DNA from: a virus
Taxonomy: Duplodnaviria > Heunggongvirae > Uroviricota > Caudoviricetes
Virus record (IMG/VR): IMGVR_UViG_2627853730_000001
Span: 1 to 9,891 of that record
Length of the DNA stretch: 9,891 nt
Reading direction: 5' to 3' (one strand)
Under the pieces are notes generated by a model. That model searched no databases. It saw only the letters and a list, made by a program, of their open reading frames with translations, and was not told the origin of the DNA. This document shows, piece by piece, positions 1-7,260 of this stretch (its first letter is position 1; every line of letters starts with the position of its first letter). Position numbers and translations under genes: made by a program.

Positions 1-1
1 G

Positions 2-235
2 CTGGAGATCACGCTCGGTCAGTTAACGGTTGAGTTCGAAACTGATGGGTGGTTTGCTCTGACGGGTGCCGGTTGCGAAGCGCGGCTGGATGATAATGCC
101 GTCTGGACCGGCTGGCGATTGCCGATGAAAGCAGGCCAGCGTTTAACGCTTAAACGCCCGCAGCACGGGATGCGCAGTTATCTGGTGGTCGCGGGTGGTA
201 TTGATGTTCCGCCGGTAATGGGGTCATGCATGTAA
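2..235 (+). pseudogene. pxpC: Interrupted host gene fragment, PxpC/YbgK-like (5-oxoprolinase subunit C / allophanate hydrolase subunit 2 family). It has no start in the window and its frame ends at a stop inside the prophage end.
   Basis: The + strand frame beginning at nt 2 is open to TAA 233-235 and translates LEITLGQLTVEFETDGWFALTGAGCEARLDDNAVWTGWRLPMKAGQRLTLKRPQHGMRSYLVVAGGIDVPPVMGSCM*. The ...SYLxVAGGIDV... region matches my recollection of the enterobacterial PxpC/YbgK mid-protein region, so the expected downstream part is missing. The following sequence is AT-rich with phage-end repeats. Identification is from memory, not a search. Confidence 0.5.
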
Positions 236-236
236 C

Positions 237-406
237 CAGGTGAATCATTTGATACCGACAAGGGTTTTAGTGAAAGGAGGTGAAATCACCTGTAAGATGC
301 TGAAATAAAACAGGTGATGTATACTTCGGACGGAAAACTCTTTTTGATACCGACTGCTCAACAAATAGTCAAAAGATCAAAAAACGGCGACACATTTGAT
401 ACTGCT
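237..406 (+). repeat. attL-like sub-terminal repeat array, presumed transposase end-binding sites (L1-L3 analogues).
   Basis: Three direct copies of the core TTTGATAC(C/T)G: CATTTGATACCGAC at 246-259, TTTTTGATACCGACTGCT at 343-360, CATTTGATACTGCT at 393-406. Three CAGGTGA motifs: 237-243, 311-317 and, inverted, inside the AGGTGA-AA-TCACCT inverted repeat at 278-291. The first copy resembles the MuA site consensus TGNTTCAYTNNAARYRCGAAAR only loosely. Confidence 0.6.
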
Positions 407-586
407 AATTTACCCTTAAAATCTTCTTCAAAACATCTTCAAACTGCCAAAATGCTCACATAATCGATCTAACTATAATCAGTATGATAATCATCATGAA
501 TTACTATTCAATAGCGTGATTATCTTGGGATGAGTCATATGATCTCTATATGTATTTACAGCACCACCTCATGATAGCGATGGCGC

Positions 587-1631: not shown

Positions 1632-3722
1632 ATGTGGGTAACAGCAAAAGAATGTGTTGGTCTTCCTGATTTACCAATGATGGAACATAACATTCGCCAT
1701 CGACTCACAAAAGCAGCTGCGGGAAATGCAGCCATGTTACGCAAACGTAAGGGGACAAAAGCAATCGAATTTAATATCGATTGTTTGCCTTCTGGCGCGC
1801 AACAAGTATTGCGTGAACGTTATGCCCTTCAACTGATGACGCAAAAAGCTGATGAATCACCGGCTCCGGTGGTGACAAAGGCCAGACGCTCATCTGCCGT
1901 GGTTGATGCGGTGGAGGCATATCGCGGATCACCACAACTGATGCTCGAACGCCTCAATGCCCTGACTGAAAACCAGCGCCAGGTGGCTGATGCACGAATC
2001 GCGATCGTCAGCGAAGTTCTGAAAGTCGCGCAACAACCTGGTTTCAGCTGTGCGAAGGCTATCCGGTTTATCGTTGACAACCTGGCACGTTCGCAACTGG
2101 ACGAGCGCATTGTGGCAATGGTTGAGACGGCGAACGCCAAAAAGGGAAACAGCCGTGCGTTGAGTGAAATCACGCTGAAACGCTGGATTGCGGCCTTTAA
2201 CAAGGCACAGAACGCCGCTGAACGCCTGCTTTTACTGGCACCGGGTAAACGCCAGGAAATAAAAGCCGAAGATATTAACTGGCTGCCCGAATTTCTGGCG
2301 CAGTATCGCCAGTCAAACGGCCGACCAATGACCGAGGCTTACGAGGATTTTGTTGCTGAATGGCAGCACCGGCACGCTGATGAGCCTTATATGCTCGATA
2401 TCATGCCCTCTTATGACACCATTCGCCGCGCAATGAAGAAACTGCCGGAAGTGGTGAAACAAAAAGGCCGGGTAACTGGCAGTGAATACCGTCAGCTTGA
2501 GGGATTCACGCGCCGCGACTGGTCCAGAATGCCGGTGAATTATGTCTGGATTGGTGACGGTCACGGCATGAAGCTGAAATGCGCGCACCCGGTTCACGGG
2601 CGGCCATTCGCACCGGAAGTGACCTTTGTTATCGACGGTGGCACGCGCTTTGTGGTGGGCTGGAGCCTTGACCTGGCTGAAAATGTTTTCGCCGTAGCCG
2701 GTGCCATACAGCACGGTATTCGCCATCATGGCAAACCGTTTCTGTATTACTCGGATAATGGCTCCGGGGAAACCGCCGACGTCCTGGATAAGGAGATTGT
2801 GGGGATACTGCCACGACTGGGGATTAATCACCCGACAGGGATTGCCGGTAATCCGCAGGGACGGGGCATTATCGAACGGCTTAACCGCACATTACCGATG
2901 CGCATAGCCCGTAAATACCGCACCTATTTCGGGAAAGGAGCAGATCGCGAGACGTTACGTAAAACCAACCGCGATTTACGCTCGGCATTCAGTGCCCTGC
3001 AACAGGGCAAACGGCTGAACGCCCGGCAGCAGTCAGCGATGCGTGATTTACCGTCCTGGTCTGAACTGATTGATGCCATTCGTGACGGTGTTGAGTGGTA
3101 CAACAACCGGCCGCACGATGAATTACCCATGAAGCCGAACGGTAAACATTACAGCCCGGCGGAGTTCAGAAAAAAACGCCTGGCGGAAGAGGACACGGAA
3201 ATTGAATGGCTGTCCGATGTTGAACTGCGGGATATGTTCCGGCCGATGGTGGAGCGCCCTGTAAGACGCTGTGAAATACGCTGGCTGAATAATATTTACT
3301 ACGCGCCCGAGCTGCGTGACGAGCATGGCCGTAAGGTACTTATCAGCTATGACATTCATGATGCCGAACGAATTACCGTGCGCCGCCCGGATGGCAGCGT
3401 GATTTGCGAGGCGGTATGGGACGGCAATAAACGCGAAGCCTTCCCTGTCAGCGCGGAATACTACAAACAGCAGCAGCGCCTTAAAGGCATGCGTAAACGC
3501 GCAGAGGAAAAAATCCGTGATGCCGAGGATGAGGTTGTCAACGTGCTGGAGCACAAGCCGCAGGAGCCCTGGCTGGAAAACATATACCGCCCTGTGGGTA
3601 ATACGGTGACCGTTCAGCAACCGGTCGCTGACGATGAACCTGATGAAGAATACGAGCGTAATTTCCAGCGGGGATTGCAACTGCTCGAAGCGAAATTAAA
3701 AGAAAGTGATCCGCTGGCCTGA
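1632..3722 (+). CDS. A: Mu-type DDE transposase A (MuA-like), 696 aa.
   Basis: N-terminus MWVTAKECVGLPDLP resembles MuA MELWVSPKECANLPGLP (enhancer/operator-binding domain). DDE catalytic triad contexts are present: WIGDGHGMK, YYSDNGSGE, GRGIIERLNRT. Size and position (immediately after ner) fit. GGGGG Shine-Dalgarno lies 4 nt upstream of ATG 1632. Confidence 0.9.
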   Translation: MWVTAKECVGLPDLPMMEHNIRHRLTKAAAGNAAMLRKRKGTKAIEFNIDCLPSGAQQVLRERYALQLMTQKADESPAPVVTKARRSSAVVDAVEAYRGSPQLMLERLNALTENQRQVADARIAIVSEVLKVAQQPGFSCAKAIRFIVDNLARSQLDERIVAMVETANAKKGNSRALSEITLKRWIAAFNKAQNAAERLLLLAPGKRQEIKAEDINWLPEFLAQYRQSNGRPMTEAYEDFVAEWQHRHADEPYMLDIMPSYDTIRRAMKKLPEVVKQKGRVTGSEYRQLEGFTRRDWSRMPVNYVWIGDGHGMKLKCAHPVHGRPFAPEVTFVIDGGTRFVVGWSLDLAENVFAVAGAIQHGIRHHGKPFLYYSDNGSGETADVLDKEIVGILPRLGINHPTGIAGNPQGRGIIERLNRTLPMRIARKYRTYFGKGADRETLRKTNRDLRSAFSALQQGKRLNARQQSAMRDLPSWSELIDAIRDGVEWYNNRPHDELPMKPNGKHYSPAEFRKKRLAEEDTEIEWLSDVELRDMFRPMVERPVRRCEIRWLNNIYYAPELRDEHGRKVLISYDIHDAERITVRRPDGSVICEAVWDGNKREAFPVSAEYYKQQQRLKGMRKRAEEKIRDAEDEVVNVLEHKPQEPWLENIYRPVGNTVTVQQPVADDEPDEEYERNFQRGLQLLEAKLKESDPLA

Positions 3723-4961: not shown

Positions 4962-5228
4962 ATGAGGTGTTATATGAATATGCAATCCTGCGGTAACAAA
5001 ATGAATTTATTCGACTCCCTGAACAGCGCGCGCCGTCTGACCGAACTTGCCGGTGCGGTACTGGAACGCAGTAAGCGCTATCCGCAACGTTTTGCACTGA
5101 AAACCACGCCGCCGGTAGGCAACGTGCAGGGAACCGGTGAAATTGAAATCACCATACAGACCAACGGCCTGCGCCGCCGTGTGAAGGCCACCCGCATCAG
5201 CGGCTGCACGGTTTACTGGGAGGTGTGA
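4962..5228 (+). CDS. Hypothetical small early protein, 84-88 aa; start ambiguous between ATG 4962, 4974 and 4980.
   Basis: Open frame abuts the stop of the previous gene (TAA 4959-4961, ATG 4962). GAGGTG at 4965-4970 would best serve ATG 4980. Tightly packed in a co-directional operon. Confidence 0.5.
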   Translation: MRCYMNMQSCGNKMNLFDSLNSARRLTELAGAVLERSKRYPQRFALKTTPPVGNVQGTGEIEITIQTNGLRRRVKATRISGCTVYWEV

Positions 5229-6089: not shown

Positions 6090-6620
6090 ATGGCTAAACG
6101 CGTTACAAAATTAAAGGCCGCAGCCGAGGCAGCACCGCAGACCCGTGAAGAGGTCAGCCGCGATATCCGACGCTTTGGGGATATGCAGCGTGAGGCACTA
6201 CGCCTGGAAACGGCGATGAATGACGAAGTGGCAGAAATCACCGCCCGTTATACGCCGCAGATTGAAAACCTTAAAAAAGAAATCAAAGTGCTTTTTAAGG
6301 GGATTCATGACTGGTGTAAAACCAACCGCAATGAGCTGACGAACGGCGGCGAAACCAAAACAGCCAATCTGACCACCGGAACGGTGTCATGGCGGCTGGG
6401 AACGCCATCATGCAGCGTCAGCCGTGATGTGGAAGGCGTGATTGAAATGCTGCGCCGTATGGGCCTTGAGCGCTTCATCCGCACGAAAGAGGAAGTGAAT
6501 AAGCAAGCTGTCCTGGCGGAGCCAGATGCGGTGAAGGGCATTGCCGGTATAAAGGTGAATAAAGGCGCTGAAAGTTTTTATGTCGAGCCTTTTGAACAGG
6601 ACGCCGGACTGAATAAATAA
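6090..6620 (+). CDS. gam: Gam-like host-nuclease inhibitor (Mu Gam family, Ku-like DNA-end-binding protein), 176 aa.
   Basis: Translation matches my recollection of Mu Gam along its length: GDMQREALRLETAMNDEVAEIT, ELTNGGETKTANLTTGTVSWR, ERFIRTKEEVNKQAVLAEP. Size and position in the early region fit. Confidence 0.8.
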   Translation: MAKRVTKLKAAAEAAPQTREEVSRDIRRFGDMQREALRLETAMNDEVAEITARYTPQIENLKKEIKVLFKGIHDWCKTNRNELTNGGETKTANLTTGTVSWRLGTPSCSVSRDVEGVIEMLRRMGLERFIRTKEEVNKQAVLAEPDAVKGIAGIKVNKGAESFYVEPFEQDAGLNK

Positions 6621-6717: not shown

Positions 6718-7260
6718 ATGGCATATTTTTATTTCAAATTAGACATAGTGTACACAAATAAATATTTAACCGAATATCAGCGGGATGTTTTACCGCTACG
6801 CAACAGTATTCTTCGGGCATTACTGAAAAATACAGGCGCTGCCGGATTGCGCTTAAAGCCGTTCGCCATGGACGTAATCAGTGAGTTTTATTTTTCTGGT
6901 TCTCTGCCTGCGGGCTGGCGTAAGCGCGATGATGTGGCTTTTATCGGGGACGGACCGTGCTTTATTGCCAGACCTGATGAGTCATGCCCTGAAGGTCCGG
7001 CGATTGCCGCAATGATTGAAACCGCTGAACGTGAGTTAAGAAAGCGTCCTGATTTCCTTGTCTGGCTCTGTGAAAAGCTGGGGGTAATGAGAATCCCCTC
7101 CATGTTTAACACGGACTCCTGGTGGACCCCGTCGCTCTCCCGTGATGCCCTGTGCGTGGTGTTTAAAGTAGGCGCTTATGGCAGGGAAATAAAAGGGGGT
7201 ATTCCTGAAGAATGCCAGGAAATTAAACATTCTGAATATGTGGCGCTGACGGAGGAATAA
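6718..7260 (+). CDS. Hypothetical protein, 180 aa, no family recognised; first gene after the only sizeable intergenic gap of the early region.
   Basis: Strong AGGAACAGGA Shine-Dalgarno before ATG 6718. The 5' ~80 nt are AT-rich. The frame is open for 180 codons with no competing ORF. Confidence 0.65.
   Translation: MAYFYFKLDIVYTNKYLTEYQRDVLPLRNSILRALLKNTGAAGLRLKPFAMDVISEFYFSGSLPAGWRKRDDVAFIGDGPCFIARPDESCPEGPAIAAMIETAERELRKRPDFLVWLCEKLGVMRIPSMFNTDSWWTPSLSRDALCVVFKVGAYGREIKGGIPEECQEIKHSEYVALTEE

Follow-up and report, generated by a model that had tools for sequence, protein, structure and literature searches.

Left junction of an Sp18-like, Mu-like prophage in the Escherichia coli pxpC gene

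The junction between bases 230 and 231 of the window (the whole stretch of DNA analysed, 9,891 nucleotides of the viral record IMGVR_UViG_2627853730_000001) very probably marks the point at which the left end of an Sp18-like, Mu-like transposable prophage adjoins the interrupted E. coli pxpC. The gene is broken after nucleotide 385 of its coding sequence, and 5-oxoprolinase is most likely inactive. The feature itself is ordinary: one more site occupied by a Mu-like (Sp18-type) prophage that is widespread and has been described before. The coordinates of the host and phage features are presented in Table 1.

Table 1. Host and phage features of the window.
Feature	Position	Strand	Evidence
5' fragment of host pxpC (ybgK, 5-oxoprolinase subunit C)	1–230	+	Megablast, Pfam, intact-gene coordinates
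TGCA, last four host bases, predicted 4-bp duplication	227–230	.	Inferred from 11 of 11 related insertions
Hybrid codon A/TG (Met) and stop TAA closing the truncated PxpC ORF	230–235	+	Translation, alignment A1
Left end (attL-type end) of Sp18-like, Mu-like prophage	231–586	+	Related matches, repeats, end alignment
Immunity repressor, CI/HTH_3 type, 203 aa	587–1198	-	Pfam Phage_CI_repr and HTH_3; PHROG 3037 transcriptional repressor, 5.6e-58
Ner-like early regulator, 88 aa	1355–1621	+	Pfam HTH_35, 1.7e-20; position of Mu ner
DDE transposase, distant MuA homologue, 696 aa	1632–3722	+	Pfam Mu-transpos_C, 2.2e-17, and HTH_Tnp_Mu_1, 3.1e-5; PHROG 310 transposase, 4.8e-209
MuB-like AAA+ target-DNA activator, 310 aa	3805–4737	+	Pfam Phage-MuB_C, 2.5e-25, and AAA_22; 48% identity to Mu B
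Kil-like protein	4962–5228	+	PHROG 2679, 7.8e-46
Gam host-nuclease inhibitor	6090–6620	+	Pfam Phage_Mu_Gam, 6.9e-40

The host origin of the first 230 bases was established by comparison with complete genomes. Megablast of window bases 1–300 against 5,426 complete E. coli genomes matched annotated pxpC in 5425 of them, and the best identity of bases 1–230 to pxpC was 99.6%, with O157:H7, O145 and related strains closest. Coordinates from a genome with the intact gene (L001; CDS 1346–2278, 933 nt, 310 aa) place window base 1 at nucleotide 156 and base 230 at nucleotide 385 of the coding sequence; the fragment comprises codons 53–128 and the first base of codon 129. Its translation of 77 residues hits the Pfam family CT_A_B (PF02626, carboxyltransferase subdomain A and B; 2.9e-24) and covers positions 30–105 of the 261 in the profile. 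The assignment to the PxpC family made in the first-pass annotation is thus confirmed. In a search of the PDB, the intact E. coli PxpC of L001 matched the solved structure of YbgK (5DUD, 5.7e-214). The gene order in this genome is pxpB-pxpC-pxpA, and the 3' end of pxpC overlaps the start of pxpA. The host fragment is one base away from the complete genomes nearest to it (O157:H7, O145 and others). Its translation contains SYLVVAGG, as compared with SYLAVAGG in the reference strain 7/2, an Ala-to-Val change that is possibly private to the window.

In frame 2, no stop codon interrupts the reading (LEITLGQ...VMGSCM) between the window edge and the TAA at 233–235, and the GC content drops from 0.59 in bases 1–200 to 0.33–0.34 in bases 301–600. 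Both had been noted from the sequence beforehand, and the boundary between host and phage DNA had been placed at the stop codon. The transition does lie near there, but host similarity stops at base 230, the left end of the phage starts with T231 (TGTAACCAGG...), and the stop codon itself is phage DNA. The exact breakpoint was taken from an alignment (A1) of the window with intact pxpC and two related Mu-like prophages. Intact pxpC continues as ...GGGTCATGCA/GTACCGATC (...TCATGCA/GTACCGATC), whereas the window reads ...GGGTCATGCA/TGTAACCAGGTGAATC (...TCATGCA/TGTAACCAGG). Both prophages, though their flanks are unrelated, start at the same TGTAACCAGG. As this start is shared by the prophages and the window, the boundary between host and phage is 230/231.

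Bases 231–235 (TGTAA) are the phage terminus, and the phage contributes the whole TAA and the last two bases of the ATG before it. The resulting fused open reading frame has 129 codons, namely PxpC residues 1–128 and a Met, followed by the phage-supplied TAA. As pxpC is 933 nt long and is broken after nucleotide 385, this TAA is not the natural stop. A full-length PxpC reading frame would have about 310 residues, but the native sequence ends at residue 128; the pxpC of the window has been disrupted and is no functional member of the PxpC/YbgK family. The alignment to the intact homologue thus bears out the earlier proposal that a prophage insertion has truncated pxpC.

The phage end carries repeats, as the first-pass annotation had stated. 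Behind the terminus TGTA, the sequence TTTGATACCGAC is found at 248–259 and 343–354 and a degenerate copy at 395–405, all in the same orientation. When the left end is compared with the reverse-complemented right end of a relative, the two align in register (T[G/A]TA..GG.GA.T..TTTGATACCGA). The TTTGATACCGA-type repeats at 248, 343 and 395 are placed as would be expected of transposase-binding sites and are putative sites of this kind; their layout matches that of the Mu transposase sites L1–L3 and R1–R3. Between the first and the second terminal repeat there is a perfect 9-bp inverted repeat (285–293 and 310–318, ATCACCTGT/ACAGGTGAT) with a 16-nt spacer. A simple scan of the phage left end, the inverted repeat at 285–318 included, called no intrinsic terminator.

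Downstream of the left end, the window contains a Mu-type set of early genes (Table 1). The transposase, for which RefSeq annotators place the start at base 1680, is collinear with MuA over its full length at 23% identity (BLASTP, E 4e-13), and its GDG and SDN motifs align with D269 and D336 of MuA. In a phmmer search of the PDB sequences (E ≤ 0.001) no MuA chain was matched. There were weak matches (about 2e-4) to the catalytic core of the ASV/RSV integrase around GRGIIERLNRTL, and the IIERLNR motif of the transposase aligns to the catalytic-Glu region of this integrase. Because the transposase is only 23% identical to MuA while the adjacent MuB-like protein is 48% identical to its Mu counterpart, the two transposition proteins have diverged unevenly. 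Identical copies of the repressor are listed in 1218 assembly blocks and of the transposase in 764; a 183-aa protein of the window is listed in 2249.

Between gam and a gp11-like gene lies a 180-aa open reading frame (6718–7260), which belongs to PHROG 2260 (unknown function) and for which no Pfam match is recorded in relatives. It was found in five related loci (L030, L031, L033, L039 and L041) and is missing in four others (L028, L029, L032 and L040), a distribution that marks it as a variable accessory gene. The immunity module is mosaic in this phage group. The window encodes a CI/HTH_3 repressor of 203 aa, as against similar prophages (L039–L048) with genes of 168 (Mu-c-like, HTH_Tnp_Mu_1), 176, 181 or 194 aa at the repressor position and with Ner variants of 76–88 aa.

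In other E. coli assemblies the same left end, with the same first base, lies against 32 host flanks, all of them different, as counted over all fetched loci. The genes disrupted in these relatives include bglJ, glrR, melA, yfcU, flgL and RHS genes. Because 32 distinct left flanks abut one and the same terminus, transposition with little site preference is indicated. The phage is a common and evidently mobile one. Together with the Mu-type early genes, this agrees with the earlier description of the element as Mu-like and randomly inserting. Nine complete E. coli genomes carry, at other loci, prophage ends that match window bases 231–630 with 100% identity. Full-length matches to this segment were obtained in 36 genomes, and every such match begins at base 231. 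The pxpC junction was absent from all fetched loci carrying the repressor, the transposase or the 183-aa protein of the window, which show other insertion sites only. It was also absent from the 5,426 complete E. coli RefSeq genomes, none of which covers more than 78% of window bases 1–300.

Among described phages, Mu_JNE082796 and Mu_JNE122137 (LC727881 and LC727895, Stx phages of CC119 STEC; PMC10132054) match about 77% of the window at 93–94% nucleotide identity. The matched regions are annotated as 'inserted Bacteriophage Mu-like phage', and they share with the window the left terminus TGTAACCAGGTGAATC and the early gene order. They reside in Stx prophages, whereas the window copy is in pxpC, and their annotated 4-bp duplications are CATC and AGAG, compared with a predicted TGCA for the window copy. 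About a quarter of the window has no megablast-level match in the two records, which points to a mosaic early region. The CC119 Mu-like phages resemble Sp18 (PMC10132054), and Sp18-like phages occupy variable locations consistent with transposition (PMC10132054, PMC2669165, PMC7430833). By published description, Sp18 of O157:H7 Sakai and Phi804-3 are of the same type as the window phage; they are about 39 kb long and have a Mu-like gene map with an invertible tail-fibre region, and phages of this type have a different insertion site in each strain and disrupt host genes, sorM in Sakai (PMC2669165, PMC7430833). Many O157:H7 genomes carry a left-end variant that is about 81–82% identical to the first 192 phage bases of the window and that may represent the Sp18 type.

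The window stops in the early/middle region of the phage. The relatives have a prophage length of about 38.7–39.4 kb and a full Mu-type map, with Mor, lysozyme, Mu gp27, Portal_Mu, Mu_F, gpT head, sheath/tube, a Gin-like recombinase, Com and Mom. Two of them are incomplete. In E. coli O157:H7 NE 1092-2 (L006; NZ_CP038328.1, 2931262–2976000) neither mom nor the conserved right terminus is present in the prophage. Its right neighbours are ycjN and ycjM pseudogenes instead of the other part of the permease gene that it interrupts, which points to a deletion across the right end and the adjacent host DNA. The prophage in bglJ of E. coli DLI.5a (L007; NZ_CP103972.1) is only about 19.4 kb long and most head and tail genes are missing. 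Despite this internal deletion, its two termini are still present and are flanked by a clean 4-bp repeat (GTAC); the copy is probably defective.

Mu itself (AF083977) shares with the window the gene order repressor-ner-A-B-kil...gam, the left terminus TGTA and end repeats resembling transposase sites, as well as the near-random insertion that knocks out host genes, the collinear transposase and the related MuB. The repressor, however, is of the Mu c type in Mu and of the CI/HTH_3 type in the window, and the right terminus is ...TTCA in Mu but ...CTATA in the lineage of the window.

The first-pass annotation had expected a 5-bp target-site duplication to flank the element. This is probably wrong. 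In relatives with both junctions, the host bases immediately to the left of TGTAACC were set against those that follow ...CGCCGCGCTATA, and the duplication was exactly 4 bp in all 11 related insertions. The repeats were TTAG, CGTA, CGTA, CGTG, CGTT, GTAC, AGAG, CATC, AGCT and CGCA, each 4 bp long, and 4-bp duplications are also given as repeat_region features in GenBank LC727881 and LC727895. As a control, the same procedure was applied to the authentic Mu prophage of E. coli W; it returned the ends TGTATTG...GCTTCA and the 5-bp repeat GCCGC. The Mu insertion in E. coli B-766 is the same as that in E. coli W. The right terminus of the lineage reads ...GCGCTATA and ends in TATA, thus in TA and not in CA, while the left terminus is TGTA in 28 of the 32 flanks and TATA in the other four. 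The left ends with TATAACC instead of TGTAACC are those of E. coli M3 (L037), L040, L046 and L047. The lineage thus includes copies with TA at each end, and its terminal dinucleotide does not seem to be strictly conserved.

A fifth duplicated base could not be recovered by shifting either boundary. Moving the left boundary one base inward calls for a T after the 4-bp repeat of the right flank, which fails, for example, at cgta/c. Moving the right boundary inward calls for an A at position -5 of the left flank, where T was seen 8 times, A 5, C 8 and G once. The 5-bp duplication and TG...CA termini of Mu proper were thus not found in the relatives of the window phage, and the lineage appears, from these alignments, to make 4-bp target duplications and not the 5-bp ones of Mu. 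The 4-bp duplication and the TA terminus argue against an element identical to Mu, not against one that works like Mu.

We consider it rather more probable than the opposite that in Sp18-type E. coli phages the stagger is 4 bp and the transferred 3' end can be TA in place of CA, in which case the pxpC insertion would carry a TGCA duplication. TGCA would then be found again after the right end of the phage, followed by GTACCGATCTC.... With a 4-bp stagger the right junction would read ...AAAAAAATCGCCGCGCTATA and then TGCAGTACCGATCTCAAAGTGGGG (pxpC from nucleotide 382 onward, with the repeat TGCA), with a 5-bp stagger ATGCAGTACC.... In the searchable literature we found no mention of a 4-bp duplication or a TA terminus for Sp18-type phages; the 4-bp duplication appears only as GenBank repeat_region features in two records.

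In this reading, the DDE transposase of the phage, aided by the MuB-like ATPase, joined the 3' ends of the phage to staggered positions in pxpC, and gap repair should then have duplicated the target bases, predicted to be the 4 bp TGCA. The truncated product keeps 128 of the 310 residues; about 60% of the protein is lost, and with it most of the CT_A_B domain. Past the right end of the phage, about 39 kb away, would come the other 548 nt of pxpC and then pxpA, whose start overlaps the end of pxpC. Both would be separated from the pxpBCA promoter, with a probable polar effect on pxpA. 5-Oxoprolinase consists of three subunits according to a 2017 paper. Because PxpC is truncated, pxpA would be separated from its promoter and the enzyme has three subunits, 5-oxoprolinase is most likely inactive in the lysogen. 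By analogy with the relatives, the duplication, the 3' part of pxpC, an intact prophage and a stable insertion would all be expected for the window copy as well.

Three other explanations of the junction were considered. The TAA at 233–235 might be where a short pxpC-like gene ends naturally, with the AT-rich DNA belonging to a neighbouring island and no gene being disrupted. The reading frame does end there, which is all that speaks for this explanation, and its probability is negligible. In 5425 of the 5,426 E. coli genomes pxpC extends 548 nt past base 230, which refutes it, and the window departs from intact pxpC exactly where the phage terminus starts. A natural stop at 233–235, named beforehand as an observation that would count against a truncation, is thus not what the homologues show. 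It is also very improbable that the host flank is no stable lysogenic insertion but an assembly chimera, a copy arising by replicative transposition, or host DNA taken up at both ends by Mu-type headful packaging. Transposable phages do package the host DNA next to them (PMC5977238). Furthermore, neither the exact left-junction patterns nor the gapped right-junction pattern CGCCGCGCTATA N{2,8} GTACCGATCT had a match when viral, genome and metagenome contigs were scanned. However, the left end is joined to one host sequence that runs for at least 230 bp. Mu carries only about 50–150 bp of host DNA at its left end, and the flanks in virions are too varied to assemble as a single sequence. Nor would a random chimera reproduce a junction exactly at the conserved terminus.

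Somewhat less improbable, yet still unlikely, is a real junction whose right end was deleted or rearranged with or after insertion, so that no remaining pxpC is found at the flank and there is no duplication. Of 12 chromosomal relatives whose right end was examined, one shows this, as far as can be judged (NE 1092-2, without the terminus and with ycjN on the right), and another, that in DLI.5a, has a large internal deletion. On the other hand, all 11 relatives with both ends show clean 4-bp duplications inside the same host gene, the window copy has an intact early region, and hundreds of assemblies encode a transposase and a repressor identical to its own. A deleted right end predicts that ...CGCCGCGCTATA followed by TGCAGTACCGATCTC would not occur about 39 kb downstream. 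We therefore retain the simple insertion into pxpC, with an intact right junction expected.

A non-essential core metabolic gene is knocked out by the insertion, which predicts a defect in the handling of 5-oxoproline and may serve as a strain marker. If the 4-bp duplication and the TA terminus hold for the lineage, this geometry would be a natural variant of the Mu transpososome. It would allow a natural comparison of the ways in which transpososomes of the MuA family set the stagger and read the terminal dinucleotide, which is of modest mechanistic value. Tools that assume 5 bp and TG...CA when calling prophage boundaries would mis-call Sp18-type elements. Part of the transposase gene (window bases about 2161–3618) is 81% identical at the nucleotide level to the Yersinia pestis phages vB_YpM_5 and vB_YpM_6, and related transposable phages therefore occur outside Escherichia.
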